The translations under genes and the position numbers were made by a program. 64,000 nt of DNA from Psammoneis japonica (Eukaryota). The DNA is taken from assembly GCA_008632985.1 (NCBI GenBank), contig QPGO01000083.1, forward strand, positions 223,075 to 287,074, in the 5' to 3' direction. The first letter of the stretch is position 1; every line of letters starts with the position of its first letter. Shown here piece after piece: positions 1 to 62,973 of the stretch. The notes beneath the pieces are model-generated. The model saw only the letters and a program-made list of their open reading frames with translations, did no database searches and was not told where the DNA came from.

Positions 1-879
1 TGCGCAGAAATCTGCGCGCAATCAGTGGGCAGCATGTTTCTGCGCAATGTCTCTCGTAACTTCCGACCCAACTCCCTGAATGAAGGGAGAAAGAGTTCAG
101 ATGCAATGCTCAGGTCTGCTCTCTAGCTGCCAGAGAGCAGGCATGTAGACCTCGGTGTCAAGAGGGCGCGGTCCAGAGATCGCCTGGTGCACTTTTTGTG
201 CAGAAACTGCACAAGAGCCAAGCACGTGCATTCCCACACAGATGCAGCACAAAAACACAAAGCGGCGCTCCATCACGACTCCTCGCGACACACCACCTGA
301 CAACAATCCATCAAAATGGCGCCATCCACATCTTTCTGCAGCTCCTCTTTCACTTGCCCCGATTTCTCCAAAAGGGCCCAGGGGCAGCTCGCACACTTGT
401 GTCATGACAGAACAGTGCAAACACAAGTTGTTTTTTCATTCCAAAATCTCAGAATGGTGCAGTGCAACAGGGGTTGTCAAAGCAAACTCGCATGTTGGCT
501 GCATCAGCCAAATCAACACCTTGTTTGCTGTTCACTCTGGAGCAACAACAGAGATGCAGCACCCTGACAAAATGCGCTCTGCACTCGACAAATTGCGAAG
601 CTCAAAATTCTTGTTGGAAGACACTCTGGATCTGCTTTAGAGACTTGACACAATGACTCATTTGTCCTGTCATTCACCCTCTTAATTTGTTGCATTGGCC
701 AACAACTGGGGTGAGTGAGTCACATTTTCCAGGTCACAAACTGCAGCACAGCCAAAAGAAGCAATCTGTGCCTTTGGAACCATCATGATGCACTGGTCTG
801 CCAAACAAAACTCCGCATCACCACCCAAAGATGGGGGGAGAACTCTTGTCAAAAGTGTGCAATGATGTGTTTGATCTGT

Positions 880-1390
880 TGAGAGCTTGCCCAGCTTAAG
901 ACATCACAGCTCCAAGTTGCCACATTTGTTGTGAACTCTTCCTGATGCTGTGTCTGTGGCTTGGCTTCGTTGTTGAATTGCCGTGGCCATCGCACTTCAG
1001 AAATGACACTTGACAAGAAAAAGTGTCTCTGGGACACCTCACGACAACGGAGACCCTGCAGAACAAAAGAACAATGCAGAAAGAGAAAACACATGCAAGT
1101 TGGATGGTNNNNNNNNNNNNNNNNNNNNNNNNNNNNNNNNNNNNNNNNNNNNNNNNNNNNNNNNNNNNNNNNNNNNNNNNNNNNNNNNNNNNNNNNNNNN
1201 NNNNNNNNNNNNNNNNNNNNNNNNNNNNNNNNNNNNNNNNNNNNNNNNNNNNNNNNNNNNNNNNNNNNNNNNNNNNNNNNNNNNNNNNNNNNNNNNNNNN
1301 NNNNNNNNNNNNNNNNNNNNNNNNNNNNNNNNNNNNNNNNNNNNNNNNNNNNNNNNNNNNNNNNNNNNNNNNNNNNNNNNNNNNNNNNNN

Positions 1391-1425
<35 letters not shown>

Positions 1426-1808
1426 GCCTCAATGAAACACACAGCATGAGTGCATGAATGTGGCAATGCATGAGGTCGGTTGTGATGCAACAAAAGCAAT
1501 GTTGACAATGCGAACCTCCAGCAAGAATTTTCACCATCAGCTGCCCACATGAACCTGTGCGCTCTCAAGCTTGTCACACACCTTGTGCTGTGGCGTGCGA
1601 TGTTCCGTTGAGAGTGCACTGCAAAGTGCCTCAGAAACAACCACATTTTTGAAATCGGCAAAACGCCATTGTTCGTGTCATTTTGCGTGTTGTTTTGCGT
1701 TGAGAGCCAGAAAACACTCCCAAAATCTGTTCTGCAGGAAAAATGCACTGAACCCTCACAGATTTGGGTTGCACCAGGCCACGTGGAAAATGAGCGGGCC
1801 GAGAACTG
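880..1808. repeat. Dispersed repeat (end of a probable transposon); second copy at ~62345-62965; spans an N gap (1109-1390)
   Basis: Co-linear similarity such as CAGCTCCAAGTT.CCACATTT, CACCATCAGCTGCCCA..TGAACCTGTG, ACCACATTTTTGAAATCGG and CCAGGCCACGT.GAAAATGA.CGGGC.GAGAACT at both loci. Confidence 0.8.
1391..1422. repeat. (CA)n microsatellite next to the assembly gap
   Basis: acacac... run directly after the N run. Confidence 0.9.
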
Positions 1809-2246
1809 TGGCGCACCCACTCAAATTTTATGCACATGAAGCTCACCAGTGTCTGAGCATTTTCTTTCTTCCGAATGCTGGGGAGTGGATGACAGTGACA
1901 TGTCTCGCTCAGAATCTTTTGTCATCACAAGAAAACCAGATCTGTGTTTAAAGTGCTGTCACTCCATTGCCAGCCAGGCCGGCACCGGCCGCCAACCCAC
2001 ACTTCCAGCACACCGTCAAGTGCGGCAGAAGCTGACTCTAGGATCAGCCGGAGTGGGCATCACCGTGAGATGATGCCCCTCCGAAACAGCTGGCAACTGA
2101 GCAAGTGCCGTGAAGCACGTCATGCTTTGCCTTCTTGAGGCTGTCTTTCAGGTGTGGTTTGTCCATGGCAACCCAATTCATGATCCATGAAGTGGAGTGG
2201 GACATGTGATTGTTGACTGAATCTGAGAGCACTTCTCTGTCCTCAG

Positions 2247-2491
2247 TGACAGAAAATGAAGATGACTGGGTGGAAGAAAACAACAACTCCTTGCTGCTGT
2301 CTAAATGGCAGATGAGTGTCCATGCAGAGACCATTGCAGGAGCCGAAAGACTGGTGTCGTGATGTCGGCACTGCTGTTGTTGTTCTTGTGAGCCAAGTGG
2401 CTCAAAAGCAAACTGCATTGCGCGACGCACACGGAACTGAGAGCACACATGATCATGTGTGACAAACTAAAATCTTGCTCAAATCCTGTCA
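2247..2491 (-). repeat. 3' LTR of copia element A
   Basis: Direct repeat of 6556-6800, TG...CA termini. Confidence 0.92.
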
Positions 2492-5400
2492 CTCCCCAGT
2501 TTGCTTGAGGGGTCAACAGCGACAGATTCGAAGTCGGATTGGTTGAAAGCCTCAGGATCGAAGTTCCAAAACATTAGAGGATGAAGGAGGTTCCAGATTT
2601 GGGAGCAGCCCCAATGCTTGCTGAGGATGTCAGCCGGGTTGCGGGAGCCTTCGACAAAATGAAGCTCAAGGAAACCGGAGGCAATCGCCTCACTCACATG
2701 ATGGAACAAGAGGGCGGTGTGTCGCTTGTGTAACTTGGAGTGCAGGATGGCAGCACCGTCCACAACCGACTTGTTGTTTTCCAGGAAGATCATCATTTGC
2801 AGGGCACGGAGAGACACTGCTCCAGAACAGACACTGTCGACGGGCACGTCTGTGAGGTGTCCATCGGCAACAAGCCTTGCTTTGTGCTGTCCGTCATGTT
2901 TGACGTCACAGACGAGATGCACCCGGATCTTCTTGTGTCCTGATGGAGCACTGGAATCGTTGTGGTGTCCGCAGTCATGGAAGACCTCGCACTCATCAAG
3001 CTGAGTCATCTCGAGGTCCGTTGCATCTCCCCACTTGCGGTTGCCGTTGTGCTCATCAAGGGCCATGGCATGCCTGTGGTCCCATGGCACTTCATGCCCA
3101 CACTTGCATCATGGCGCAGTGTGAAAGGAGCACAACTTGGCTTGGTTGGCCATGCGGAACAGCTTCTTCTGATGAAGGGCCATCTTGCAAAAGCGTCTCC
3201 ATCCTTCGGTTTCTAGAAGGCCGTGCTCACACGCGTAGATGGCACAGGTGATGGGTTCGTCCTTGGCAATGATGGCAAGGGGTTCGGACGTGATCTCCCT
3301 GTTCTCCCATTCAAGCATGACGTTGCAGCTTGAGCCTTTCCAAGAGGGATCATGGGGTCGCAATGGTCCTTCATGTGGTGCAATGTGTCGGAACTTCCAG
3401 AGGGTGGTGTCCTTGTCTTCTTGCTCAATGTGGTGCATGATGTCATTGCAGGCCAGGACTTCCTCACATTCGTCATTGTTGACAGAGCAAATGAACTTGA
3501 CCAGTTCAGGATTGTCTCCGATTTTCCAGTCATGGTCCTCAATGACTTTGACGATGCGGGCTCTGTGGCGTTGTCCATCCTCTTGTGGCTTCATGAGGAA
3601 GGTGCGTCCCATGACATCCTCAGGGTCAAAGACCGGCACTTTGGGCATCCTGATTGCCTCCCCATCTGGTGAATCTGGTGAATCTGGTGAATCCTCAGAG
3701 TCGTGGCGGGATTTGATGACAGGTTCAGCAGATTTCTTGTCAGGAGGATCAAGACGCAGGTTTGGAGCAGACGGATCATGGGCGGAGCGCATGTTGGAAC
3801 AGCAGAGAATCTTCTGAGTGTCGTCAGAAAGAATCTTGAACGTCATTTGGTGACCAACGTGCTCAGCGATGTGTGGGAGGCCGGCTTTGATGTCGATGGG
3901 AATGACGCATCCATCAACAGTGGTGATGCGCTGCAGACCGTCGGGGACCTTGATGGACCGATCGTTGACATCGTGTTTGCACCACTCAAGCTGGCCGCAA
4001 GAGTGTGTCGTCTTCCCCTTTCCAGTGTGGGTGCACTGGTGAAGGATGGCAATGGCAGGGCTGCGTTGTGTGTGGATGACACCACCGGCAGCGACAATGG
4101 GAATGTCTGCCAGTTGATGATCATCGACACCTTGGACATCAATGTCATTGGGCTTTGCGTCGGAGCAGACGGAAGGTGCAGATCTGGGTGGTTTCCCGCC
4201 AGAACGGGCGGAAGGAGGCCGTTCAGGTGCCAGGAGAAGTTGCAAGTCGCCGGGTGGCAGGGGCTTGCGCCTGGTGAGATGAGCCAGAATGGGGTTAGCA
4301 TCGGCTGCATCAGCTGCAGCGTCAGATTGTGCGAAGGCTGATGCAAGATCGCGAGTGTTGGCGGACAAGTTGACATCGCCATTGCTGCCAATGCGGAGGT
4401 CGTGCAGGTTGACCGCCGTCAAGTCATGGCAGTTGCCGGTGTGGGCGGTGCACGAGCCAAGAATGATGGCCTTGGTGGACTGGGGCAAGGTGTCCCAAAT
4501 GCGCTGATGGTCCGGCGGAATGCGACGCCATTGTTCCTTGGTGAGGGAATTGCCACGAGTTTGTGCAGCACAAGCTTGGATGATGTCAACATCGCTGTCG
4601 ATGTCGAAGAACACATCGTCATCAGGGTCGTCAGGGACCAGGTCATGTTCGTAGATGGCACGGCGCGGAGCGCGAGGAGCCGTCTTGGGGGCGAACGTGC
4701 TGTCGCACTGTGCTGCAGCAGAAAGCAGGAGTCCACAGTGCTCTTCGTAAGAGAGCCCCTTTTCATTCTGTGTGTGGAACTGATCGGCCTGATTCTTCAC
4801 CGAACGGAGTTCTTTGACAGGATGAACGGCATTCTCAAGCATGACACGTTTCTGGCCAGCAGAGAAATGGTCTGCACCCAGGACAAGAGCTTCACACTTG
4901 CAAAGCTGGTCCTGCCAGTGAAGTGTGGAGGCATGGGTGGATCCGTTCCAGGTGCCATCACCAAGGCGAGCAGTGGCGAGGTACGTGAGAAGGGTCGAGG
5001 ACTCCAGGGTTGCGCGAGTGGAAGCAAGGGTGTGCTTGGAGAGGTCACGATGCACCGCTTGAGCATCAGAGGAGCCAACATGTTGATGAACAATTGCCCT
5101 GCCTTTGTCATTCTGCAAGATCCACTCGAGTGTGGCGAACATGTGCTTCTGTTGTTCATCAAACAGGGCCTTGTCCTCAGCTGTAGAAGGCTTGTACGTC
5201 AGATCGAGAATGCGTGTGACATCTTGGGAGCGGGCCTGTGCGATGATGGAGGTGTGCCACGTGTGCCACTGTTTGTCAGATTTGAGAAGTGCGAAGGCAA
5301 GTGGGTCATGTTTGATGCCTCGTTTAAAGTCACGCATGGGATCACGTGGTTTGGGTGGCAACGAGCCAGGAGTGGGAGCAGATGGTGCTGCACCCATGGA

Positions 5401-5745
5401 GAGGGACGCTGCATGCTCAGGACCAAGACGATGGTTGGTGAGCTCCTCTTGTGTGAACAATTGAGGGTCATTGCTGACATCCACACCGCCCCAAGCTTTT
5501 GCCATGTGCAGGCTAATCAGCGCAGCTGTCTGTGCTTTGTAACCGCGTGGCAAGGGCATTTGATTGGCGCCATCGTTGCACACAAGGGCACCCAATTGCA
5601 TTGGAGTAAAAGTGAAAAGGTCCTGATGTGAATCGGTTCCATCAATGTTGAGAGCAGAGCGCAATGGACTGTCTGCAGCTTGATTCAGAACAGTGCCTAG
5701 AATGTGTTCGAGGCCATCGATTTGTTGTTGCCTGGTGAGAACCAT
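2479..5745 (-). pseudogene. gag-pol remnant of copia element A (integrase core and most of RT missing)
   Basis: DFKRGIKHD gag motif, DVNDRSIKV, IRVHLVCDVKHDG, KLHKRHTAL, NPADILSKHWG; abrupt junctions LPHI|AEHVGH and MMIFL|ENNKSVV. Confidence 0.85.
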
Positions 5746-6555
5746 GTTGCAACTGGGTGGATGTCAGAACTGGCTGGAGTCGGAGGGTGAGCTTGAAATG
5801 ACTTGAAACTTGACTTGAATCTTGACTTGATGTCTTGAACTGTCTCAAGAGTCAGAAGCCGCTGGGCTGTGACATCCTGTTTGCAGCCAAGTGCTGAGCT
5901 TCCTGTCCGGTCTGTAGAGTTGTGCCGGCACGTCTGAACCCACAGCTGGCGACGCTTTGGGTTGCTTGAGAGCGGAGTGACGGGTTAAAAACCCCTGCTG
6001 ACAAGCCAGCCAGAGGTGGACAAGACCTCCAAACCGTTCTTGTTTTATGTGGGTTGGATGACCCGATCAGGCCGGCCAAATTTGGCACTGTGGAGGGACG
6101 AACAAATGTGGGAAATGCACCCTCGCCCCAATGCAGGCTGTGATCATGAACTGCTTCCTCTCACAGTTGTCCTCGTGGACCTTGCAGGACTGTGGAAGAC
6201 CAGCAATCCGGTGTAGATACAAAGCGGTAGACTTGGCGTGCGTGGAGCAGAGCCAGAGTCAGGGGTTTGCATCGTGTGCGCATGGATGCGAGCGGATGGA
6301 TTGGCAGGATCCGCTGTGAGGAATCCGGAATCTCGGATGTCTGAGAATTTGGGAATTCCTGGCCAAAGAAACATCTTGAACAAACACATCCAACGATGGG
6401 AGGCATTGGATGAATCCAAACGTGTGGATTCAATGCAGTGTCCAGCAGTGAAGAAGGTGGACATGCACTTCCACCACAAACGGTGCGTGTCGTCGAAAAT
6501 TTCTCGATGACAATGATGAACGCTCAATGGATGACAAAGAGCAAGACTGTTTGTC

Positions 6556-6800
6556 TGACAGAAAATGAAGATGACTGGGCGGAAGAAAACAACAACTCCT
6601 TGCTGCTGTCTAAACAGCAGATGAGTCTCCGTGCAGAGACCGTCACAGGAGCCGAAAGACTGGTGTCATGACATTGGTGCTGCTGTCATTGTTCTTGTGA
6701 GCCGAGTGGCTCGAAAGCAAACTGCATCACGCGACGCGCACGGAACTAAGAGCACTCACAATTGTGTGTGACAAACTAAAATCTTGTTCAAATCCTGTCA
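6556..6800 (-). repeat. 5' LTR of copia element A
   Basis: Direct repeat of 2247-2491. Confidence 0.92.
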
Positions 6801-7564
6801 CTCAGCAAGACATTCCTGTCATTTGTTGTGTGCAGCCACAAGTTTGCCTTCCGCCTGTTGGCATTGAGATGATTTCCTTGTCTCTGCATCATGGTCATGA
6901 ACCTCCTGATTGTGTTCTTCCCAAAGTTCCCACCAGAGCTTCCAAACAAAAGTTCCCATCTGCACTCCCCAAACCGGAGGCGGGCGATTCTCCCTGCGAC
7001 ACTTTTTCAAAAGGCAGGCCCATTTTAAGAAGGTGCATCTCTCCTGAAAAACATTCCAAACCCTTTGACATCACAACGGCAATCTTTTGCACTGTAGAGT
7101 CATTGCGCAAAACTTGTGTGGAACAGCACCAAGACAAGTGATGGAAAGTCTGTCTGTCTGTCCTTGGCGAATTTTGACTTTGCAAAAAATGGACTTGACT
7201 CTTTTCTGACAAGGCGCGTTTTTTTTCAATGCAATCTGCAGGCATTCTCAGCTGTTTTAGATGCATTCCAGGCCCAGGTGGGAGCTCCATGTTGCAGCAC
7301 TGACATGTGACACAATTGTTTTTTTGTCATCCGTTGCGTGTTTCACGCGCACATTTCTGCATGTGATGTGTTTTGCGAAACCCCAGACGTTTTATTTGAC
7401 AAAATTGTGGGAACACAAATGCACCAGGTGCATTCTTAAATGTCTGAAGAATGCACCTGGCCAAGCAGAAAATGATGTGTTTCAATCACAGACGAGTTTG
7501 TGCATTTGCAAAATTGCCTCATTTTCTGTTGGAGATCATTGACATGTTAATCACCTGACAATTT

Positions 7565-7640
7565 TGCTGCGGAGCTCACACGTAGAATTCTGCGGGCCCA
7601 ATGTCACACTGATCCCCACCCATGTCTGGAACGCATCTTT
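7565..7640 (+). repeat. Repeat terminus shared with 28612-28686
   Basis: TGCTGCGGAGCTCACACGTAGAATTCTGCGGGCCCAATGTCACAC vs TACTACGGAGCTCGCACGTAGAATTCTACGGGCCCAATGTCACAC. Confidence 0.8.
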
Positions 7641-8039
7641 ACATGCTTTGCGTCATGGGTCATTTTTGAAGGATTCCCATTGAGACATTCAGTTTGTTGA
7701 GTTTGAGGGTGCATTCAGTCGTGAAAGTCCCCCGGAGCAACCTCCATTCGAAAGCAAAAGTGGAGCACTGTTTTCTGACCATCTTTTTATGCACTTGATT
7801 GTTGAACAATTGTGAGTTCATCCAGAGGACTTTCTTTGCACATGCATGTTCTTAACAGTGCAATTGATTGTGTGTCAAGTGCCTTTGCAAAGTTGTCCTC
7901 TTTGTTTCAGCATCTGAAAATTGTCGTTGTCATTGTTGTTGGTGTCGAACAGCAATTTGTTGTGCAAATCACAATCAATTGCATGGCCGTCATCTCTCCA
8001 ACATTGCACTTCTGCATGCAACTTGTGCACACACCTTAA

Positions 8040-8245
8040 CAGCAAGAATCATGGTGGCAGTCTGTCTGTGTGGCGCAGTGATTTCTGCACATGTTTTGCA
8101 CTTTTGTCCATCTGCACCACCTCCAGCCCAAACCTGACCAACCTGATTCCAGTTGGATCAGGCTGGCGGTGGCAGGGATGGACAAAAGCTCAAAACATGC
8201 ATGGAAATCACCGTGCAGACAGACTGCCACTGTGATTCTTGCTGC
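8040..8245. repeat. Long inverted repeat or foldback (~85-bp arms), MITE-like
   Basis: CAGCAAGAATCA..GTGGCAGTCTGTCTG...TTTTGTCCATC...CCAGCC is the reverse complement of 8161-8245. Confidence 0.8.
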
Positions 8246-8629
8246 AAGCAAGTGGCAACACTCAGGCAGTGCCACAGAGCTTCTGCCTTTTGTCTGCTGC
8301 AAAAGGTGACAAAAATGGGAGCGGATGCACTCTGGTGCATGTGTTTGTCAAGTTGCACATGTGGGCAACATGCTGGTTTCTGCAGACTCCCCCCACAAGA
8401 TGAAACAGGGTTTGGTGGATGGCGCGATTTTCACCAGCACATTTTCTATGAGCTCTGCATGTGAATGCAAGTTTGTCAAAATGCACAGTTTTGTGCATTG
8501 GGGTTTGCTGCTGGAGTCAATCCCAAAATGAGACCCGGCACAAATGACATGTTCCAGCCACACGTGAACCAAAACATGCACAAAAACAACATTTGCATGG
8601 TTTTTGTGCAGTCTCTGACTTGCAAACAA

Positions 8630-9113
8630 GCTTTCACCACCAAAAGCCCAGATTCACACAAATGCAAATGTTTTGCAACACTGACAAGACTCGTGTCAGT
8701 GCTGCAATGTCATTGTTTTTGTGCAATCAATGTTTTTTCATTGCAACAAACGAGTTGCAACGCAACGGATGATTTTCGCCAAAATTTTTAAAGATTCATG
8801 TGCTGTTGCTGTTCAAGGCCAACACAAAATGTTTGTGCATGCATTGTGCAGTGTCAATCTGCTTGCACAAAAGTTTTTGCATTGCAAGTGCTGATGCACA
8901 GTCAGCATTGCTTCCACAAAAAAGTTTTGCAACATGTGCATCATGAAGGCTTGAACACGGATGAAAAATTGTTTAAATGTTCACACTCTCATCAAACATA
9001 AAATCCAGAATGCATGAGTGTTTTAATGAACAGCCTCAATGCACAAAGCTCACACAAATTATGTTCAAAATGGATTGTCATTTTGTGCATCACCTGGGAC
9101 TGGAACACGTCAA
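8630..9113. repeat. Dispersed repeat; second copy at ~54230-54690
   Basis: AGCTTTCACCACCAAAAGC...GATTCACACAAATGCAAATGTTTTGCAACACTGACAAGACT...GGAACACGTCAA at both loci. Confidence 0.85.
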
Positions 9114-9114
9114 A

Positions 9115-9235
9115 TTAAGGCTGGTCGGTTGCTGCTTTTTTTAAACCAAATTTGGCCAAACAGCTTGTGTTGTGCATGATTTTTCCTGAATTTCACTTCA
9201 CCATGGATGGAGGTGGTCCATCCACCAACTCTCAT
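9115..9235 (+). mobile_element. Probable DNA-transposon end (TTAAGGCTGGTCGGTTGC...); related copy inverted at ~55125-55285
   Basis: Reverse-complement match to GCAACCGACCGGCCTTAA and GAAATTCAGG...AATCATGCA. Confidence 0.5.
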
Positions 9236-9239
9236 TTGT

Positions 9240-12200
9240 TTCATGTTTGTCATGTGTCAAAGATTGTTTGTGCATTAAAGTTGGCAGATGGCAAACTGCA
9301 TTTGTGAGAAATGTCAATGATTTTCATCATCATCTTGTTTCAATCGCAGTGCTGATGGTTCTCGTTTTCATGTGTGATCAGATGTGACTGTGAACAATTC
9401 TTCTTGCATTCAAAAACAAACACTGCAAAAACCCTTGTTCAAGTGCACCGGCAATTTTAAAACAAATGCGGGGATGACCCCCCTTAAGACCAGAGTGGCA
9501 CCTGGTGCAAAAATGCACAGAACCTTCTGTTGGTCAAAAAAAAATTGAGAGGCATTGCGCTCAAAACAGCACAACAGACAAGAGCATTCGATTGCCACCC
9601 TTTTTGCCCCCAGAAAAATCCTTGGCCCTTGCGGGGCATGTCTGATCTCCAGCACTGAAATCACACACATTTCTGCATGGGTCTTAAATCATCACCTGCC
9701 CATCAGCCTTGGCTCATTGGACATTTTTGTTTGCATGCTGAAACTCATGAACTGCACAGATTTGAAATGAAGGCAAGGATTTTTTTGTGACAAGTTCAAT
9801 GAGTTCTTTCACATCCAGGCATGAAGTCATGAAATGTGTGGACACTGCAGCATCTGCATGGATGGAGATCTCAGGCGGGTCTTGTGTTTTCAATGCTGAC
9901 AAAAAAACACACACACATTTGATGGCCCAAACAGGTGACCGCCGAAGTGCCTCTCAAAAGCAACCCAGATTGTGCAATCCACAGATGCACACTGTCAATC
10001 AACATGAGTTTGCTGTCAAGTGAACAGAGCTTGCTGTCCAATGAACAGAGTCACTGTGCATGAAATGGAACACTCCATCCACGTCACATTGTCTGCACGG
10101 GTTTGTGTGCATTCAGTCATGTCTGGCGCAAAAAAGTGGATGCCCACCAAAGTGCACTCTTTTGCCTTGACAATGTGTTGAGATGATGAGGATCTTGTTG
10201 TTTGCCTCTGCACTTGTGGCCCTCTTTCTTTGCATCCATTTTGAATGGCATCCCACTCAAACAGAGCTCCAATGGCAAAGAAAATCAACAACGCATTGCC
10301 AGAGGATGAGGCTCTCTTTTTTGGACAGAATGGCAACACTTTCTGGTTTCTGGCAACTTTGTTCTGTGCTAGAGGTTGCTGGCTTGCTGTTGGGGACACC
10401 ATCAAAAATGGGTGCAGCCTGCCAAAGGGGCATTGTGAGACAAAACCTGCTGCCTGGTGTGTTCAATTGCACCGTTGGAGCTGGTCGCTGCTTCTGCCAC
10501 CAACAGAGTGCCATGTTAGAAAGAGAGTGAACAAAACAAGATGCTGTTGCAAAGAGCGCATGAGCAAGGCTGTTCCTGAGCTCACGGAGATGCAACTTAG
10601 AGCACCCTGGGCAAAAACAGGGTCATCCTTTTCAGGCTGGACACAGCTGTCACACAGCCATCACCTTCCCGAGTGATGCAGAACATCTTGATCCTGATTT
10701 CTTTTGCTGTGCCTGCCTGGTTGGTCTCTTCCATGATTTCATCCAACTTAAGCTCTCATGGACTGACCTTCATTGCATTTTCAAATCCACCAAACTTGTC
10801 CACTGCAAGTTGCATGGCCAGGCACAGCATGACAAATGAGCTGGGTGGTTGTTCAGGCAGCTTGGCTTTGGGTGATTTGCAGTCCTCCTTCATGTCTTGG
10901 AGGCACAATGAAAGTGTTGTCCAAGAAAAAATAAAGAATGCACCCTTGTTGGGAATGTCTTGCATGAACTTGACAATTTTGGGAGCAAACTTGGGTGGAG
11001 CAAATGCAAGCTTGACCCTGTCACTTGGCAGCTGGACAAGTTGTTTGCAGACGGTGTTGGAGTCACACTCGCAGTGGCATGAAAAGCACATCTCCACCAC
11101 TTGCATTTGAATGAGAGTTTGCAGCTTGCCTTCTGGTCCTTGATGGTCCTCATGAAAGTTGGCAAATGGAAGGTTGAGGGCAAGCGTGTGGTCAACAACC
11201 TTTTGCTCCACAAATTCATGGAGCTCTTTGTTGTCCATTGGAGCTGCTGTGTTGTCATGTCCCTGTCTTTTCACTTGCTCCTGGACTTGAAATGGCATCC
11301 TAAACTTTCCCAAGATGGTGCCAATGATCAAAAAGTGGATTCTTTCAAGAGTGCAAGACACAGAATGCAGTGGCCATGGAGGCTGCCTGTCTTCAGCCGC
11401 AAGAATCCAAGCCAACCATTCACAGAGAAGAATGAAGTGGAGCTTGTTGAGTTTCTCCTTGCATTCTTTGTTGTTGGTGGTTTCTTCCAACAGCTCATCA
11501 AGGTGCATCTGCTGGGTGACAGCCGGGTTGTCATTGTGGAGCATTGTTTGATGGGGGGCTGTCAATCCTCCTCTGAGCAATCAATGGCACAAGCATGCAT
11601 CCAGTCTGCAGCAGTCACTCCATCAAAGGCTGTTCAACAGCAAGTCCACGCTGCTGTTCCTTTGCATGCAGGATGTGGATCTGAGCCAACAAGTGTTGCA
11701 GATGCTGTTCCACCACCACACGCATCTGCAACATCTGCAGGAGCTCCTGGATCAACCACATGTGCAGGACTTGACACTGTTGCAGCAGTGCTCACTGGTG
11801 CTGCCAGACCTCCTGACAATGACACTTCTTTCTGCTTGGAATGCCTTCACATCATCTGTGTTCACTGTCTTTGTTGTTTGCATCAGACTGGTGACATTTG
11901 TGCTACAAGATCTGTCATCTCCATTCACACTGTGTCATGACAATTTAAAGTTGTGTTTAACTCAACAAACTTGACAAAAATGACAAAGGGGCAATGTTGT
12001 GTAATGACCCTAAAAGTTGCCTTGCCACGCATGCAACGAATTTGCCTTCATGTGTGGTGCAACCTTGTGATGTCCCCCCCCCCCATGTGTGACGAAAAAT
12101 GGTGCAGCACAAGGTGAAATCACTCAAAAAATGACCTTCCATGTGGGCACTGTCCTCATGTGTGGTGTCCCACACTGTTTGATGACTTGCAGCTTGAGTC

Positions 12201-14800: not shown

Positions 14801-14849
14801 TCATTTCACTGATTTGAACCAAAAACAAAAGTTGACAAGAGAAATGATC

Positions 14850-16800: not shown

Positions 16801-17229
16801 TTTCTTGTGTGCTTGGGCCTCAGCCACAGATTTGAGTTGATGCTGTGTGCATCCATGGGCACAATGTTGGGATGGCATGCACAGTGGTTTGGCTCAATTT
16901 TGTCAACACTCGGAAGCAGTTTTCTCATCAAGCAATTTCAGAAAAGCAGAGCCTCATGACACACCAATGGGGAGTTGTCAGCAGCATCGCCAACAATGAA
17001 AAGAGTCTCGCTGCAGATGTGTTTTCACTTGGGCCACTTGCAGCCATTTTTCACAATTGGGGGTGCACACATGGCGGCTTCATCCCACGACAATGTGTCA
17101 AAATCCTTGGCTTTCCAATGGGCAGCCTTGTGCACCTGTGAGGAGTGGTGGCAGAGGTGGAAGAAGGCAATGAAACAAGCCAAATGTCAACATCCTTGAG
17201 ATCAATTGTGCCCACAATGCTGGGAGGAG

Positions 17230-35290: not shown

Positions 35291-35477
35291 GCCCTAGATG
35301 ATAATCTATATTCCATTTCTTATGTATTTTCTACGCCTTTTTTGTACTGTGATGGAATTCATGTTATTTTTCTCCTTGTTTTTCCACTCTGAACTCTGCC
35401 TCGCGAAAATTCCAAAATTCCATCGCCGAAAAATCCCAAAATCGCCAACACATCATCAAATTCGATTCCCTCCCACC

Positions 35478-42633: not shown

Positions 42634-42638
42634 TAGAG

Positions 42639-42833
42639 AGTTGACATCTGTCAATCTACCTGTCGACTGCGCGCAATCGCGCGCTTCAATTTTCAAATTC
42701 CGCCATCAAAACTCTGCTCGACACTGCAGTCATAATTTTCAGTCAGCAACTTTTGCAACAACAACAGCCACTAGTTTACAACCTTGAGCATCAGCTCTTT
42801 CGACATCTGCAGTTGTGCATCGGCACAACAAGT
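42639..42833 (+). repeat. 5' LTR of copia B
   Basis: Gapless match to 49907-50101 with 12 differences. Confidence 0.95.
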
Positions 42834-49883: not shown

Positions 49884-49906
49884 CTCTACCTACGGTTGAG
49901 AGGGAG

Positions 49907-50101
49907 AGTTGACGTCTGTCAATCTACCTGTCGACTGCGCGTAATCGCGCGCTTCAATTTTCAAATTCCGCCATCAAAACTCTGCTCGATATTGCAGTCA
50001 TAATTTTCAGTCAGCGACTTTTGCAACAACAACAGCTACTAGTTTACAACCTTGAGCATCAGCTCTTTCGATATCTACAGTTATACATCGGTATAACAAG
50101 T
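49907..50101 (+). repeat. 3' LTR of copia B
   Basis: Follows the PPT; followed by TSD TAGAG. Confidence 0.95.
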
Positions 50102-51799: not shown

Positions 51800-54700
51800 T
51801 GGTTAACCATGGACTATCTTAAACACATGACAGACAGGTGGTGGAGGAGAACATTCACTCACCGCACGTCAATGCTGTGTGGAATGTTTGCAACTCTCTG
51901 CCCAAGTCTCGTCAAAGTGTGTGGGCATGGAGCACTTCCGAAGTGTGACCCCAGTTTCAAAACAGTCAAGATGAAGTGCATTGTGGTCATTTGCTTTCCT
52001 CCATCAACACCATTGATGGATCAATTCACAGTTGCTCCCTGTCATTCCTTGGCACAGTCTTGCTGTTCCATGCTTGGGCACTCATGCATTCACAACCTTG
52101 TTGCTTTGTTGCCACACGCACAGCCATTTTGGAGCAACAGATGTTGAAGCCATCTCACCTCTGAGAATTTCATGCTGGCCATTTAGTTGCATCAACCATC
52201 ATGGAAATCAACTGCAAGCTTTGACAAGAGAGGAGGAAACTTCCTTTTCACACCAATGTCACCCTGTTGAATGACTTTCCATGTCCAGCACAGTTGAAAA
52301 GTCCATTCTTCTTGTGCATTGTTCCCTTGTTTTACTCAGTCTGATCTGAGTCTTTTTTCCAACTTAGATGAATTGTTGGATTGCACTGCACAAAGCACAT
52401 GTGCTCACCCACGATCTGCTGCTTTCAACCAGTTCCTGCAGTCTGAACAGCAGAAGTTGGTCTTTTTTTTTTTGGCAAAGAATGCAGCGCCCCGTGGCCC
52501 TGGATCCAGACTTGCTGCCAGCATTTGGACACACTCAATGAACCGGCATGCCTTGACAGTTCTTGGTTCTTGATCCAGACTCACTGCCCCAGCATTTGGA
52601 CACACTTGAGGAACTGGCATGCCTTGACAGTTCTTGGTGCTTTTGAAGTGCTTGCCAGCAAAATCTCAGTCAGCAGTCTTGAAGGCCTTGCAGGAGTCAC
52701 CAGTGGCATTGATGCAGGTGCTCTTGTTCTGCTCATGGATGATTGTTTTTGTTTTGCAAGCCTCTCAAAAATCCTCAATGATGCGAGCAGTGGTTTGCAG
52801 AATGTCAAAGCATGACGGGTGTGGCCACAACCCTTCTCCAGAAAATTGCACTTGTCCACCAGATCGGGGCTCATCAGGAAGTTCTGAGCTCTCTTGTTGT
52901 GTGCATCAGACAATGCTGTCATTTGCATGTGGTCAAATGACTTTGCACCTGCAGAATCATCAGGAATGCAAGTGGCTTGGGCTTGACAATGTTGAGTCTT
53001 AATGTTGGGTCCACATTTCAACATTCTAACAGCTGCCATGCATTGGAATGATTCTGTCACACACTGGAAGAGGCAAGTTCTTGGTTTTGTGAGAGTTGTG
53101 CATCACAGTGTTCCAGTCATCATTGTTTTAATTCCACTGGGATGATGCTGGCTCTCGTGTGCCCCCCTGTCATTGCACTGGCACTTGAAGTTGTTGTTCT
53201 TTTAATTCTTCTGCTGGCACACACACTCTTTTGGGCTTGTTCACTCCAATTGTTGTGCTTCCATTCATTTTTCTTTAAATTCTGCTGATGTGCCAACTCT
53301 CATGTGTCCCCCTCTCTGCCACAATCCTCATCAAATCCTTTTTCTCATGGCAAACAAAGAACAGAAGAAATGTTGTGCAAGCACTGAATGACACATTGCA
53401 CAGAAGTGCACAACAGCAGCAGTTTTGCACAAACTCTCATGTGTCCCTCCCACCACAATTCTCATCAAATCCTTTTTCTGCACTGAGCTTCACGACTTGG
53501 CAATCATCATCATGTGCAAGCTTCTTGTTGAGTGAATCAAGTGGAAACTTGCAAAGGCTGTCAACATCTGCAACTCTAAAAATGTTTCCAGTGGTGCCTC
53601 ATTTTGGTGAAGGAAATGAAAAACATGCGGTCACCAATGGACTTGCATGAGCACAAAAGTGTGGCAGAGACACTTCGTGGCATGCACAAAGGTCGCGCAC
53701 TAGTTTCACAAACTCTGCCAGCAGCTTTTATGATGGGTTGTGCCTGGTGAAACTCCAACCATCCCTGTCACTTTGTTGTGAGCATGGCCTTCCACGGATG
53801 CAGAAGCTGATGCTGTTCTGGCTTGACATGAATGGATCAGACACTTCAGAAGAAAAAGCTGGTTTCTTCATTTTCTTCTGCAATGACAGCTGCTTTTTCT
53901 TTGCAGTGGGTCTCGAAAGTGAGGCAACAGCAATGGAAGGGTCATTGCTGCTTTCAGCCACAACAACACTTGATGATGATGATGATGAGAGTGAATGCAA
54001 ATAAATCACCTTGTCAACTTTCTGCAACCCAACAGGGACGTCACTCATCCCAATGTGCAAGAGTGATGCATTTGAGACCTTGGAACAACCTTGCTGTTTG
54101 TCAAGATGCTGCAGCCTTGTCTTGCATTGAAGAACCTTGAACTGACACATTCCAGCAGCAAGTGAACCAAAAAGTGCACAAAAACAACATTGGCGTGATT
54201 TTTAGCACATGGTCTCTGACTTGCGAATGAGCTTTCACCACCAAAAGCATGGATTCACACAAATGCAAATGTTTTGCAACACTGACAAGACTTGTGTCAG
54301 TGTTGCAACGTCATTGTTTTTGTGCAATCAAACAATGGATGATTTTTGCCAAAACATTTGAAGATTCATGTGCCATTGCTGTTTGAAGGCTGACATGAAA
54401 CATTTGTGCATGCTTTTTGTCGCATCAATCTGTTTCTTTTGCACAAAAATTTCTGCATTGTGAGTGCTGATGCACAGTCAGTGTTGTTTTTGCACAAAAG
54501 TTTTGTCACACATGAGTCATGAAGACTTGAACACCCATGAAAAAAATGTTTGAATGTTCATGCTCTGATCAAATGTAAAAGCCAGAATGCACAAGTGTTT
54601 TAATGAACAGCCCAAATGCATGAAGCTCACACAAATTGTGTTCAAAACAGATTGTCATTTTGTGGGTCACCCGGGGCTGGAACACGTCAATTGAAGGATG

Positions 54701-55290
54701 TGTCATCAAGTCAATGAAAGGTGAGTGTGTCAACGTTGGTGAGGCATCACCGCTCACTTTTCGCAAAAAGTTCATGGTTGATTTCAAGTTGCGCTTGAGA
54801 CTTGAGATCCCATCAGATGCAAGGTCAAACTCTCATGAGCTTCTTTGATCCAACCTTGAATGTGAGCATGTTGCTGGAGTCATCCCCCCGTGTTTGTCCC
54901 AAAATTGCTGGTGCATTTGAACAAGGTTTTTTGCAGTGTTTGTTTTTGAACAGAAGAGTTGTTCACAGCCACACTCAAGTTGAGCACAAAAACAAGAACC
55001 ATCAGCACTGTGATCAAAGCACAATGATGCGATGATGACAATCATCAACATGTCTCAAAAACACAATTTGCCATCTGCCCAATTTTCATGTGCACACAAT
55101 CTTTGACACACAACAAACACAAAATAAATGAGAGTTGGCAGACGGACCTCCTCCGTCACAGACTTGCTTGTGGCTTGTTTTCACCACTGCAGCAAAGCAC
55201 GGAGAAATTCAGGTGAGAAATCATGCAAAACATGAAGCCATTTGTCCAAGTTCAAGCTGAAAAAGTGGCAACCGACCGGCCTTAAGTGCA
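51800..55290. mobile_element. Decayed repeat cluster, including a ~71-bp tandem duplication at ~52520-52640
   Basis: TpA and CpG depletion; CAGCATTTGGACACACT...GGCATGCCTTGACAGTTCTTGGT twice; holds the copy of the 8630-9113 repeat. Confidence 0.6.
54230..54690. repeat. Copy of the 8630-9113 repeat
   Basis: Direct co-linear similarity. Confidence 0.85.
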
Positions 55291-55329
55291 GCACTTGCAC
55301 ACCGTAAGGCACACAGGGGCCGCCAATCC

Positions 55330-56250
55330 AGTGTTTGTCATTTGTTGTTCAGTGGCGCATGGTGTTCTTGTGGACTGTGGAGGAGAACTGGGAGTGGCCG
55401 TGGAGTGAGTCAATCATGTGGGAGCACGTGAGAGCACTTGCTTCAGAGTCATGAGCTGTGGACTCTGTTGGATGAGGGATGGGCAGTCCCAAAAATTTGA
55501 TTGAGAGGGTGGATGGGGCCAGTCTCAGGTCATTGGTGGCTGGGGTCTCCCCAATCAGCACCAGCAGAAAATTGCGCTGTGTTGCGTGCTCTGTGTCGGC
55601 GAATGGTTCGTCACAGTTCTTTGCTGCATGCTGGACACATTGCTGCTGGTGTTGCAGGCACTTCTGCAGACTGGCACAGGCAGTCTGAGGGTGGTGAATT
55701 GTGATCTTGGCAAGTCCCTGGATGACCAAGATTCATGACTCAGCTCTTTCAGCTGGCCAACGGTCGCGCGCGTCTGTCTCTCCGACGAAGCTTCCGAGGC
55801 AGTGGCTGCCAGACTTGACAGCAAAGCCTGGATCTCCAAAGCATGCTCTGACATTTTCCAGGTTGCATTCTGGGACTGCTGTGATGTTCTTGGAGTTGTT
55901 GGCAGGGCAGCATCCGTGTTTGGGGCCTTGGGCTCAGAGAGTCAGGAGGAAAAAATCCCGCAGGATGTTGAATTTTCCCGTGCTGCTGCAGAGTCATTGG
56001 TGCACCAAGGGGTGAATGCATCTTTGAAATGCTCACTCATCTCATGGACCAGTGGAAGAAGTCCTGGCCTGCACGCTGCCATGCCAAGTGGACCGCCCTG
56101 TGCGACGCCTTCTTTGCTGAACAAAATGAAGGCGGTTCCGAAGTTCCCCCGGAGGATGATCAGGACACTCCAACACTTGTGCAGCTGTTGAAGGTGAACC
56201 TTGCACCGGATGGCCAAAGGTGCCTTACGTTGTGTGGCATTAGAATCCTG
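55330..56250 (-). mobile_element. Non-LTR retrotransposon (CRE/R2-like) RT remnant
   Basis: SKEGVAQGGPLGM...GLLPL...PWCTNDSAA corresponds to QGDPL...WYADD; downstream LGLPIPHP. Confidence 0.75.
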
Positions 56251-59500: not shown

Positions 59501-60226
59501 TTTTGACTCGTTACAGATATGAGTATCTTTTTTGAAATGATTCGGAACTTGATAGGACGGTATGAGGGCGACGCAACTGTAATCACAGGTGCGCAACGCT
59601 TCCTTTCACACAGTGATCATTTTGTCCATGTTTGGTTCTACTCTTGCCAAAGCATTCTATACATGTACTTTGGGGATGATGAGAAAGGTGCAGACCTAGC
59701 CATTGAAAGAGGAGACGCTTACGCAAAAGGAGTTCCTGGCCAAATGTGGAATATGATCGATGCCTTTGCACGAGGAATGCCGTTGTATGCTATGGCGAGA
59801 AAGACGAAAAAACGCAGGTACAGAAACCATGCGAAGAAGGTTCATAAGATCATCAAATCTTGGGTTCGAAAAGGGAATCCAAATGTCCAACACTATGACC
59901 TCTTAATGGACGCAGAATCTGCCGCGCTCGGCAGGAAACTGGACACAGCAAAAAGGTGCTATCTTGCGGCTATTGTATCAGCGACACGACAAGGGTACAT
60001 TCACGAGAGTGCGTTTGCGTGTGAGCGTTATGGTGAGTTCTTGCTGGACGAAGCGAACGATCGGGAGGAAGCAGAACACCAGCTTGCTACTGCGGTACAA
60101 CGTTATGGGGAATGGGGCGCTTTGCGGAAAGCGAGGTTGCTACGTGAGAAACACAAAGACTTGTTGTGGCGCGAGGAGAAGCCCTTGGAAGAAGTTGTGG
60201 TTCACCCTGGCAAAGAAAATGGCTAG
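56582..60226 (+). CDS. P-loop AAA ATPase (AAA_16/STAND-like) with helical TPR-like C-terminus, multi-exon
   Basis: Walker A GDAGCGKT, GKFD...PYS, Walker B LDDIQ|WAD across intron 57440-57512, T.GN, WVHDKVQEA, YGEWGA..K; further introns near 59241 and 59448. Confidence 0.88.
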
Positions 60227-60299
60227 GAAACTTGCAGAAAAACAATGCTAGTTAGAGCGTAATGTTTTGTTAACCATTATTGTACATTTTGGTAACCCG

Positions 60300-62344
60300 A
60301 CTATCAGAACCTTGCACACAATGTTCCCTGGTCAATCATGAGCCAGTTTTCCGTGTGGCAAACATGCAGTGGTGCTTTTCTGACCGGCTGCACCTCATCA
60401 AACCAAGTGCAGAATGTGCGGTGCAGACACGGTTCTTTGTGTCAGCAGGCACCATTATGTTGTCATTCAAGCAGGTGCGCAGAAGTGGGATTGCCAAAAC
60501 TCAGCAAAGTGTTCCATCATTCTGATGTCAACGTCCAATGTTTGTGGCCACTTTCTCAAAGAGCCAGTTGTTGGACAATTCAATGCCATCTTCCAGTGCA
60601 CATTTGACAGGTCCATGCAAAATTTAGGAGCTCCACCACTTGTGGACAGCATTGCACAGGCCAGCTCCAGGGCCTGTCACCCAGGCTCTCATTGATGTGT
60701 GGCCTGAGAGTGGATCTTCTGATCACCACAGCACTTTCAATGGCATGTGGGGGTGGTCATTTCCATCCAACCCCAAGGTTGGTGGTCCCAAACTCTCTGA
60801 GCATTGGAGAGATGCATTCTCAAAACAGTGGCAAGGGTGAGATGGACTCAGCATTTCAGCATCTTTCTCTTCTTCTCATGCTGGATTTCTGTGAGTCTGC
60901 CACTGTTGGTCCTTTCCATTTGCTTCACTTGACAGTTTGTTTCCGTAAACTCAATGGAGAGCAGGTGCATGAAACAGATGCTGATGTCAGCCCTGCATGT
61001 CTGTCTGTGCCGGCTTCTTTACAAACCTGATTTATTCACATCGGAATGGTCTGCTGCCCCACACAGCAGTTTGTCTGCCATCCTAAACACGGAGAAGACT
61101 GGTTGCCAGTTGGACAAGAAGTGGACAATCACAGTGCTTTTGCCAGATGCTTGTCTCAAATCTGCCAGTTTTTGAAACAAGCTTGGGGAGCTGCTCTGAT
61201 TCACTGTGCCTGTTCTGCTGAATGGGTGTGGGGCACAGAAGTCAAGTGTTTTGTCAACTCATGCACTGAGACACTGGTGACCAAGCAACACAAGTGCTTG
61301 TGGGGCTCTGTGGCTGAGAGTGCAAATCCAGATGTGGTCATTTAAAAACTTTTTCTTGCAGATTCACATGTTGTTGTCGCACCAGAACAACCTTTGTCAG
61401 CGGTGCTTCAATCGTGAATGATGCCTTGCAGAGTTGACTCTCTCACGCCATCTGCTCTTTGACTGCACAGTGCACTTCTGTTGGCTGATGCTGTTGCAGA
61501 AGCATGTCCTGCCACTTGCTCTAAAGCGGGGCCCTTTGCTTTTCGCTGTCCAACAGAGGGGGCTTGTGGCTTGCAGCTTGACTCCAGATTGCACGCAGCG
61601 AAGTTTTTTTTTGCTGTTCAAAAATTTTGACACAAAAAAGACATGTCAAAAATTGATGTCTTCAATTGTGAGAGCTGCAAAGCAAGAGCAAAGTCCTGAA
61701 ACATTGGGTTCCCCAAGCAATTTGTGTGGCATGCAAATCTGTGTGAAACTTCCAAACTCTGACTTTGAACAACATCATGTTTGTCAATTGACAAATCTTT
61801 GTGCACAAACACAGAAAATGGACAGGGAAAATCACACAAAACAGCCGCTTTTTTGCTTGAGTGACAAACTGGCTTTTAACAGCAAACATTTGCTTTTCAC
61901 TCTCTCTGACCAATGTTTTGCATCTGTCTGATTTTGTTCAGCTGGCTCATCAAGAGCTTTCCAATGATGTGCCCCTGTTTGTCATTTGTGAGAACAAAAG
62001 TTTGCACAGACACATGCTGCTCCAGAGCATGTGTCTGTGCATTTGTGCAGCTTTTGTGCAAGTTGAATTGCAGAGGGATGTTGTTAGACACAAAACATTT
62101 GTCATGCCTGCCAAATTGATGGACAACCATTGGAGGCACATTTTGCTGGTGCAAACGTGCAGAATTTCACACAGCTGCACAGATGGTCTGCCTCTGGAGA
62201 AGGTCTGTGCAGGTGAGAGTGCACAGGAGGTCTCTGGAGGGGGTCTGTGCACAAGTGGGGACACAGGTCATGGGGTCTGTGGCGCAATCCTGAAAAGAAG
62301 TTGGCTGCTTCTGACGCGCCTCCTCGACAGCGACAGATCAGAGC
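60300..62344. mobile_element. Decayed TpA/CpG-depleted repeat DNA, unclassified
   Basis: Composition and Tyr-free ORFs. Confidence 0.5.
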
Positions 62345-62973
62345 TCTTGACAGCTTGTCCAGCTTTGGACATGACAGCTCCAAGTTTCCACATTTTTTGT
62401 GAACTCTTTCTGATGCTGTGCCCATCACTTGGCCTTGTTGTTGGATTGCCATGGCTGTCTGCTGCAGAAGTGGCATTTTTGTTGAGGAAATCTGTCCCAG
62501 GGATGAGATGGCTCATGTGTGGCGAGGGAGACCCTGTGCAGAACAAAACAACAATGAGGAAAGACACTGCACATGTGAGTTTTCAAGAATGTAAACATGT
62601 GAGGCCTCAATGAAACACACAGTGTGAATGGTGATGCACAAGGCTCGTCAATGGACAGCTGGGTGATGATGTTGTCAGCACAAACCTTGACAAGATTTTT
62701 CACCATCAGCTGCCCATGTGAACCTGTGTGTTCTCGAGCTGTCACATGCCTTGTGCCATGACGTGTGATGTTCCATTGAGATTTCACAACAAAACACTTC
62801 AGAGACGACCACATTTTTGAAATCGGTGAAACGCCATTGCCTCTGTGTTATTTTGATCCGCGAGCCAGAAAACACTCCCCAAAATCCAAAATTGCTCTAT
62901 CGGGTGCAGAGCAAAATGTCCTGGGTTGTACCAGGCCACGTAGAAAATGAACGGGCTGAGAACTCCGGTAGTA
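62345..62973. repeat. Copy of the 880-1808 repeat, ending ...GAGAACTCCGGTAGTA
   Basis: Co-linear similarity; the terminal part keeps TpA. Confidence 0.8.

Follow-up and report, generated by a model that had tools for sequence, protein, structure and literature searches.

Mobile-element DNA in a 64-kb stretch of the genome of the diatom Psammoneis japonica has lost nearly all of its TpA dinucleotides, which have been replaced by TpG and CpA. The stretch (64,000 nucleotides; positions 223,075 to 287,074 of contig QPGO01000083.1, assembly GCA_008632985.1) is referred to here as the window, and positions are counted from its first base. On the basis of the footprint described below, we consider it probable that a process specific to TpA converts A:T to G:C within certain mobile-element insertions, whichever the strand, and continues until hardly any TpA remains. 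A targeted hypermutation of this kind was described very recently in Bigelowiella natans; the diatom provides a second and independent case, far more extreme and in a new major lineage. The new detail provided here concerns the borders of the affected DNA, the nesting of elements, the sequence context of the change, and its consequences for the elements.

The TpA of blocks and host controls was compared within this 64-kb stretch. For the whole window, the observed/expected ratio (o/e) is 0.30 for TpA, 1.48 for TG, 1.47 for CA, and 0.68 for CG. Two-state segmentation on TpA density yielded eight low-TpA blocks with a total length of 38,866 bp (38,584 non-N bases), and their coordinates agree within about 150 bp with those given in a first-pass annotation of the window. 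In these blocks, TA was observed 191 times against 2411 expected from base composition (o/e 0.08) and CG 1224 times against 2411. Conversely, TG (4082 against 2466) and CA (3909 against 2358) are in excess. TGCA is likewise enriched 2.3-fold (132 per 10 kb against 57 in host DNA), in agreement with the excesses noted in that annotation, and TATA is absent (0 per 10 kb against 15.9). The remaining 25,134 bases contain 1027 TA of 1762 expected (o/e 0.58) and 1364 CG of 1391, and host segments range in TpA o/e from 0.46 to 0.92. The longest run free of TA extends over 1298 bp (18956-20253) at about 54% GC. The TpA depletion of the element blocks is real and far beyond chance.

The effect is confined to one dinucleotide. 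AA (1.24), AT (0.88), and TT (1.18) are not depleted in the low blocks, so the change is specific to TpA rather than a general loss of A and T. TpC is not depleted either, with an o/e of 1.08 in the blocks and 1.07 elsewhere. The consequences are visible at the protein level: Tyr makes up 0.4-1.0% of four Copia reading frames compared with 2.1-3.7% of four host proteins, and the host genes between the blocks are normal in Tyr as well as in TpA, as had been claimed. When both strands are counted, TAA and TAG together fall from 36 to 6.9 per kb and TGA goes from 37 to 49. Since TAA and TAG are lost and no new stop codons are made, long overlapping open reading frames (ORFs) are expected by chance in the low blocks.

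Polarity, strand, and context of the change

The direction of change can be read from a young long terminal repeat (LTR) retrotransposon, Copia-1. Its Ty1/Copia identity follows from its RVT_2 (E 6e-28), gag_pre-integrs, and SH3_retrovirus domains, its integrase, and flanking LTRs of 198 bp that are 93.9% identical. A search with its reverse transcriptase (RT) returned 1191 homologs, and RVT_2 is present in 118 of the best 120 listed. Conserved columns were defined by alignment to the first 80 of these 120. At 14 columns with conserved Tyr, the Copia-1 RT has His at six, Cys at four, another residue at three, and Tyr at only one; a tblastn version of the same columns has Tyr at two, Cys at four, His at seven, and another residue at one. 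At the conserved columns other than Tyr, the protein retains 90% of residues, as intact close relatives do. The catalytic YVDD motif reads HVDD. Tyr accounts for 0.7% of the Copia-1 RT and for at least 2.3% of every one of the 120 listed homologs.

Nucleotide changes were called at the codon level only where a single possible change exists. Among 36 such single-step changes in the Copia-1 RT, T>C before A and A>G after T account for 10 each, with no A>G elsewhere, two T>C elsewhere, two CpG transitions, two other G>A, and 10 transversions. In total, 22 of the 36 are A>G or T>C and four are G>A or C>T, and the 10 transversions represent background divergence from the homologs. Replacements of Ile>Val, Met>Val, and Thr>Ala, each with a preceding codon ending in T, are among the A>G changes, so the context rule holds beyond Tyr codons.

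A comparison within the element leads to the same polarity. The two LTRs of one element are identical when they are made. In Copia-1, 13 TpA are present in the 3' LTR (o/e 0.78) and four in the 5' LTR (0.28). All 12 differences between them are transitions, 10 of which set T or A in one copy against C or G in the other. Nine of the 12 have TA in the 3' LTR and either CA (six) or TG (three) in the 5' LTR; the other three, within the 198 bp, are two CpG differences and one T>C outside TpA. Set against these three, a loss of about 70% of the TpA in the 5' LTR would mean that change was faster by something like two orders of magnitude. TpA o/e tapers along the element from the 5' to the 3' LTR (0.28, 0.20, 0.08, 0.15, 0.45, 0.78), and the 3' part still contains Tyr>His and Tyr>Cys changes.

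CpG is near normal in Copia-1 (o/e 0.84-1.03) where TpA is mostly gone (0.08-0.28), so the loss of TpA precedes and outpaces CpG decay. TpG and CpA are also products of the deamination of 5-methylcytosine, which has affected the older blocks (CpG o/e 0.23-0.42) but has no means of removing TpA. Across the low blocks, the deficit is 2220 for TA and 1187 for CG, and the excess of TG and CA together is 3167. The TA deficit and the CpG of Copia-1 rule out CpG decay as the sole cause. The polarity is also the reverse of that of fungal repeat-induced point mutation (RIP), and both points had been made correctly in the first-pass annotation.

A second element, Copia-2, has the same signature together with more CpG decay. 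It is bounded by LTR-like direct repeats of 248 bp (2247-2494 and 6556-6803; 88.7% identical) and contains an 884-aa frame which lacks a Pfam match of its own and matches a 1881-aa RVT_2 polyprotein with an E value of 5e-163. Only residues 1-675, 1060-1423, and 1801-1871 of that protein are matched, which indicates internal deletions. RVT_2 was found in four of the six homologs scanned, namely in all four long ones (1507-1913 aa). At 15 conserved-Tyr columns, Copia-2 has Cys at six, His at two, and Phe at one. Of the inferable changes at conserved codons, 11 lie at TpA and six are A>G or T>C in other contexts; a further 13 are CpG transitions, in line with the lower CpG of this element. Of its A>G changes, 7/11 follow T, and 4/6 T>C changes precede A. 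Among the 28 mismatches in its LTR pair are eight double changes of CA against TG at neighbouring positions. Provided that CpG is not much depleted, doubles of this kind are what hits made independently on one strand or the other of an original TA should produce.

In both Copia elements and the LTRs, 40 TpA events could be polarised, 20 to TG and 20 to CA; both strands are therefore hit equally. The direction of change is TA to TG or CA, that is, A>G after T and T>C before A. The replacement of Tyr by His and Cys, the codon-level inference, and the LTR comparison agree on this, which bears out the A-to-G change in 5'-TA context on both strands that the window had been suggested to contain.

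Most loci related to the Copia-1 RT are normal elsewhere. Among 80 metagenome loci encoding its relatives, 77 have a TpA o/e of 0.36-0.88; the Copia family is therefore not natively TpA-poor. The Tyr content of the 120 listed homologs points the same way. The other three loci are depleted (L069 0.04, L065 0.09, L033 0.18, with CpG 0.1-0.2) and have reduced Tyr at conserved columns. Their context order is similar to that in the window, with ATAT wholly lost and TTAA among the best kept, although there are exceptions (e.g. CTAG 0). Likewise, one of 150 Copia-2 homologs (P0243) has 0.7% Tyr with Cys and His raised. Judged by their composition, the three metagenome loci are independent support that the TpA footprint exists outside this assembly.

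These data bear on the idea that the elements are poor in TpA by nature, through either a foreign base composition or selection to escape a TA-directed nuclease or RNA decay. A TA-free element would indeed be immune to TA-directed attack. A repeat in block G (54008-55341, with a related copy at 8542-9481) is TA-free and reaches summed contig depths of 3765 (54008-54674) and 1141 at no less than 90% identity, against 61-64 for host DNA. This repeat consists of tens of near-identical copies, and the TpA-free family may have multiplied after the loss, possibly as an escape; at about 60 times single-copy depth, some of its depletion may be inherited within the family. Native poverty is nonetheless very improbable as a general account. 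It is at odds with the substitution of catalytic and invariant Tyr by His and Cys, with LTRs of Copia-1 that differ at TpA sites, with the normal composition of 77 related loci, and with a depletion common to unrelated element types. For Copia-1 and Copia-2, it is refuted by the Tyr replacements and, in Copia-1, by the LTR comparison, and so it remains for the unclassified blocks only.

The bases flanking TpA influence its survival. Retention of each xTAy tetranucleotide in the low blocks was measured against the 77 normal Copia loci. It increases from ATAT (0.00), ATAC/GTAT (0.01), and ATAG/CTAT (0.03) through ATAA/TTAT (0.07), GTAC (0.07), CTAC/GTAG (0.15), and GTAA/TTAC (0.16) to CTAA/TTAG (0.20), CTAG (0.20), and TTAA (0.36). 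ATAT is thus the most fully lost and TTAA the best kept. A multiplicative half-site model fits these values well, with flank factors of 0.12 for A, 0.26 for G, 0.45 for C, and 0.6 for T. In the 40 polarised events, a model in which the flank acts on the adjacent base pair outperforms a distal model by 5.5 log-likelihood units, and no dependence of the TG or CA outcome on the flanks is visible. Tentatively, the preferred target may be 5'-T-A-Y if the enzyme is directed at adenine and 5'-R-T-A if it is directed at thymine.

Affected and spared elements

All block borders are sharp within a few bp, with dense TpA outside, none inside, and no leakage into the flanks, and they coincide with the ends of elements. 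The inner of two nested elements bounded by terminal inverted repeats (TIRs) has TpA left in no more than the terminal 15 bp or so at each end. This mutated element lies in an outer TIR-bounded element whose own DNA is normal (TpA 0.92). The reverse nesting also occurs: a normal TIR element of 1.86 kb (17230-19092) sits within the fully depleted remnant Copia-3, and the segment of normal TpA begins at 17235, 5 bp inside its left TIR. The spared elements also have normal CpG. The inner TIR element contains a tandem array (25812-26504) of units of about 180 bp which are 88-90% identical and differ mostly by paired CA/TG changes, with 16 such double differences among 57 mismatches. As separate observations on the 1.86-kb element, the sole mismatch of its 29-nt ends (17230-17258 and 19064-19092) is TA against TG, and both ends carry sub-terminal copies of a 14-nt GC-rich motif.

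Duplication does not seem by itself to predict mutation. Copia-1 is multi-copy, with a summed contig depth of 400-750 against 61-64 for host DNA (6-12 times), and is mutated. Yet a host-like duplicate of 1 kb (50161-51178 and 63009-63999), 82% identical, and two TIR elements are not. The unmutated duplicate and the spared TIR elements suggest that the target is particular mobile elements rather than repeats as such, all transposons, or a broad chromatin region. The description of the process as repeat-targeted therefore has to be narrowed: in the window it is confined to mobile-element DNA, and the 1-kb host-like duplicate is spared. The duplicate belongs to two paralogous frames (50140-51540, 466 aa; 62769-63998, at least 410 aa) which lack a Pfam family, have normal TpA, and each lie directly downstream of a hypermutated block.

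The range of element types that could be identified as affected is also narrower than first proposed. Pfam was used to scan 139 of the 242 listed frames (of at least 90 aa), namely those in or beside the low blocks. With E values up to 0.01, only one of the 139 has a transposon domain, a weak RVT_2 match in Copia-3 (15896-16291, E 5.8e-4), and none has a LINE or transposase domain. Three Copia-type LTR elements and one TIR-bounded element are the only ones identified among the low blocks, leaving about 28 kb of low-TpA DNA without identifiable ancestry. The claim that LTR, LINE, and TIR elements are all affected thus stands for LTR elements, finds no support for LINEs in the scanned frames, and applies to one of three TIR elements, the other two being normal. 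Three further weak matches in this range are regarded as due to chance. They are GAF at 4342-5628 (on the strand opposite the Copia-2 frame), CTF_NFI at 34120-34455, and the AID/APOBEC-like NAD2 at 12679-12954, the translation of which has neither an HxE nor a PCxxC motif.

It is hardly credible that the pattern is a sequencing or assembly artefact, such as the misreading of a modified base at TpA. Contigs of run X1 have no differences from the window over unique low-TpA stretches, at single-copy depth (52442-53553: 67 against 61-64 for host DNA). Strand-dependent misreading of a modified base would not fit this, as it would give TG and CA variants at half depth instead of single contigs at full depth. 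X1 is the only public run that covers the stretch, its platform is not on record, and it may be the source of the assembly, so we do not count it as independent support. An artefact would also have to account for three independently assembled metagenome contigs with the same signature and context order, and for borders which coincide with element ends. Over about 20 kb compared between X1 and the window, 203 of the 223 listed differences are transitions, and many adjacent CA/TG pairs occur among the Copia-1 rows shown. In a subset of 40 of the 224 X1 variant rows, there are nine CA/TG doubles, 15 cases of TG or CA against CG, four transversions, and three others.

Candidate process and its relatives

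The data show a process at the DNA level with a strict TpA context, strand symmetry, a restriction to mobile elements, and a speed well above that of CpG decay. RNA editing of the ADAR type, fixed by retrotransposition, is ruled out by the 20 TG to 20 CA ratio and by the affected TIR element (24629-26746), and strand symmetry and this same element rule out the editing of single-stranded cDNA. Biased gene conversion is likewise excluded: gain of G:C at the expense of A:T is not general, as AA, AT, and TT are unchanged, and the TpA context is strict. Action on the integrated copy is most likely: the copies are saturated, the RT is dead, the tandem repeats have diverged, and B. natans offers an analogy.

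The chemistry we favour would be the conversion of adenine to hypoxanthine by a DNA-acting deaminase with a preference for 5'-T-A-Y. Homology, small RNA, or chromatin would direct such an enzyme to elements that are recognised or silenced, as is suggested by borders that are sharp, by nesting that occurs in either order, and by the normal CpG of spared elements. Elements would die by missense, with Tyr changing to Cys or His, Ile to Val or Thr, and Leu to Pro or Ser, while TAA and TAG would be removed without new stops. The result would be a genome defence similar to RIP with the opposite chemistry.

Several observations weigh against this reading. Of three TIR-bounded elements, the one at 17230-19092 and the outer one at 24274-27628 are unaffected, and nesting in both orders is awkward for a simple chromatin-domain model. 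In the CpG-depleted blocks, a CA/TG double may go back to either TA or CG. Given the depth of part of block G, the depletion of the unclassified 28 kb or so could be inherited from a TA-free family. The preference for 5'-T-A-Y is slight in the polarised events, in that the adjacent-flank model exceeds a model without flanks by only 0.6 log units. Domain scans of the proteins of the window detected no deaminase. Finally, sharp borders without leakage would equally suit editing before integration.

In that last case, a host enzyme would attack extrachromosomal element DNA (Copia cDNA or excised TIR elements) in the manner of APOBEC3, and copies would arrive already mutated. This would explain not only the borders but also the mutated TIR element inside an unmutated one, and the two LTRs of an element can differ after editing at the cDNA stage. 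We nevertheless regard it as improbable. An even 20:20 division between strands is not what editing of a single-stranded intermediate of replication would leave. Mutation is saturated to an extreme degree, with TA-free runs of up to 1298 bp, and an element with an HVDD-dead RT cannot cycle repeatedly on its own. The tandem units of the inner TIR element have diverged by 16 CA/TG doubles, and the text of the B. natans preprint describes a signature that arises in DNA which is already integrated (10.64898/2026.01.13.699255).

Adenine deamination also has a mirror-image alternative. TpA is self-complementary, so A>G and T>C cannot be told apart from sequence, and a TET/JBP-type dioxygenase might oxidise T at TpA in repeats to 5-hydroxymethyluracil (5hmU) or 5-formyluracil as a silencing mark, with T>C arising on either strand through occasional mispairing with G or through misrepair. 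5-Formyluracil mispairs with G. Mild support comes from the flank test, in which the 5' neighbour seems to influence the T:A pair next to it (A>G>C>T); for a T-modifying enzyme this corresponds to 5'-R-T-A. As described in the consulted parts of one article, a TET/JBP homolog in dinoflagellates, which like diatoms belong to the stramenopile-alveolate-Rhizaria (SAR) group, makes 5hmU that is enriched in repeats and silences transposable elements, and older work is cited there in which T was replaced preferentially in TA and TC (PMC11572971). In our data TpC is not depleted, and an enzyme acting on TA and TC would need to be mutagenic at TA only. A base-resolution map in Breviolum, as far as it is described in the portions of the paper drawn on here, gave no sequence motif for 5hmU (PMC11071213). 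The dinoflagellate modification is not a fixed mutation, and loss of TpA has not been reported for dinoflagellate genomes that carry it in massive amounts. On balance the thymine route is unlikely, and deamination of adenine is the preferred chemistry. To our knowledge, 5hmU has not been reported in diatoms.

The first-pass annotation held that no eukaryotic system of this kind had been described, a statement now superseded by a 2026 preprint on B. natans (Mettrop et al., bioRxiv 10.64898/2026.01.13.699255). According to its main text, two integrated viral regions underwent de novo hypermutation in mutation-accumulation lines, in which 20/20 and 210/211 mutations (230/231 in total) were A>G or T>C and all the GC-biased ones fell on TpA. 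The rate was about 6e-7 per site per generation, some 1000 times background. The genome contains, as a long-term footprint, clusters poor in TpA and rich in CpA and TpG, and RT and DDE endonuclease domains are over-represented among its TpA-poor coding sequences. An ADAT2-like deaminase was proposed there as a candidate for the enzyme, which is not known (10.64898/2026.01.13.699255).

From what the preprint text describes, the two systems share the change from TpA to TpG or CpA, a near absence of other changes, and a restriction to foreign or mobile DNA, with the remaining DNA normal. They differ in lineage, B. natans being a member of the Rhizaria and the present organism a stramenopile diatom. 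The main targets in B. natans are an integrated giant virus and a virophage, which that text gives as mildly depleted (Rho 0.45; 9.2% TpA), whereas here transposons reach an o/e of 0.08. The evidence in B. natans comes directly from mutation accumulation and that in the diatom from the footprint alone. A word search of the preprint's main text, supplements aside, found sharp borders, nesting, and the order from ATAT to TTAA absent, and neither diatoms nor stramenopiles mentioned. A full-text literature search likewise found no report of the TpA signature in diatoms.

Fungal RIP is a premeiotic process in which the enzymes RID and DIM-2 cause C>T changes, mainly at CpA, and which creates TpA and stop codons. 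The present process resembles RIP in ascomycetes in its saturating, burst-like transitions in mobile or repeated DNA, its sharp limits, the inactivation of elements, and its dinucleotide footprint. It differs in that A:T>G:C changes destroy TpA and stop codons and turn Tyr (TAY) into His or Cys. ADAR and APOBEC likewise produce deaminase-driven clustered transitions in mobile elements, and ADAR prefers sites at which U precedes the A that is edited (according to 10.64898/2026.01.13.699255). Their signatures are limited to one strand and to retroelements, whereas both strands and a TIR element are hit here, and the change is not C>U.

We tentatively suggest, as somewhat less than an even chance, a DNA base-editing defence of ancient origin that is common to diatoms and chlorarachniophytes. 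In it, a natural enzyme system would locate single copies of mobile elements in the chromosome, with a base-pair precision suggestive of homology or small RNA as the guide, and would convert A:T to G:C at 5'-TA(Y), on both strands, until it has killed the element. If the proposed process is real, TpA-directed A:T>G:C hypermutation would serve as a genome defence in at least two distant branches of SAR, in this case saturating on ordinary transposons. It would add a second chemistry to the eukaryotic mutational defences RIP and APOBEC. The search for the enzyme would be tractable, through genes common to the diatom and B. natans and absent from relatives without the footprint. Such an enzyme would be a natural counterpart, on double-stranded DNA, of the activity sought in engineered adenine base editors, and the defence would be a mirror image of RIP. 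The process would also explain why degraded diatom transposons can be invisible to domain searches, as in the scan above with its single weak RVT_2. Caution is needed with long ORFs in such DNA, which are artefacts of stop-codon loss.

Features of the window

The positions of the blocks, elements, and control gene are given in Table 1. An assembly gap (282 N at 1109-1390) lies inside the first low-TpA block.

Table 1. Low-TpA blocks, mobile elements, and host control gene in the 64-kb window (TpA and CpG as o/e)
Feature	Position	Strand	Description
Block A	1..17234		Composite of several old mobile elements; TpA 0.07, CpG 0.37; holds Copia-2 and part of Copia-3
Block B	18956..20518		TpA 0.04; GC-rich right end of the TIR element 17230-19092 and rest of Copia-3
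Block C	24644..26730		TpA 0.09; coincides with inner TIR-bounded element
Block D	27595..29355		Unclassified; TpA 0.14, CpG 0.73; without Pfam match
Block E	34132..35294		Unclassified; TpA 0.05, CpG 0.35; sharp borders
Low block with Copia-1	41337..49443		Delimited by segmentation
Low-TpA DNA adjoining Copia-1	41337..42635		Unclassified; TpA 0.05, CpG 0.63
Block G	51821..56225		Unclassified; TpA 0.06, CpG 0.28; related to 8542-9481; part is a high-copy repeat
Block H	60303..62848		Unclassified; TpA 0.06, CpG 0.23; related to 873-1807
Copia-1	42636..50101	+	Young LTR retrotransposon; LTRs 42636-42833 and 49904-50101
Copia-1 reading frames	43428-45536; 45485-48301; 48336-50000	+	Gag-like; integrase; RT/RNase H
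Copia-2	2247..6803	-	Internally deleted LTR retrotransposon; 884-aa frame at 3112-5763
Copia-3	15203..16402	-	Old RT remnant; upstream part at 19599-19762; found by tblastn
TIR element, non-coding, 1.86 kb	17230..19092		29-nt TIRs, 97% complementary; inserted into Copia-3; not hypermutated, TpA 0.79, CpG 1.06
Outer TIR-bounded element	24274..27628		65-nt arms, 94% complementary; own DNA normal (26731-27594: TpA 0.92)
Inner TIR-bounded element	24629..26746		126-nt arms, 91% complementary; tandem repeats of about 180 bp; hypermutated
Host myosin gene	36083..39472	+	Myosin_head E 1.6e-171; ordinary composition, Tyr 2.1%; control

The host genes of the window are long and mostly intron-free, and encode myosin, PAS-domain, FG-GAP, laminin-G, MSS51-like, metallophosphoesterase, and AAA_16 NTPase proteins. 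The myosin served as the taxonomic marker and assigns the host to the raphid pennate diatoms, to which its best named relatives are ascribed: myosin G of Phaeodactylum (61%), followed by proteins of Fistulifera, Mayamaea, Nitzschia, and Fragilaria; the best unnamed one reaches 72%. Contigs of run X2 matched only host genes in the window, and such contigs cannot show an element to be silent; those of a third run, X3, gave no match. In the region 56537-60000, an X2 contig skips 73, 85, and 70 nt at GT..AG (57436-57510, 59239-59325, and 59445-59516). As the contig is spliced at these sites, X2 is probably RNA, and a single spliced gene is formed by the frame for AAA_16 (STAND-type NTPase) together with the 666-aa frame that follows. 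Directly downstream of the myosin gene, the gene at 39596-41077 encodes a protein with two PAS/LOV-like domains (PAS_9, E 2.8e-30), which may be a light or redox sensor.

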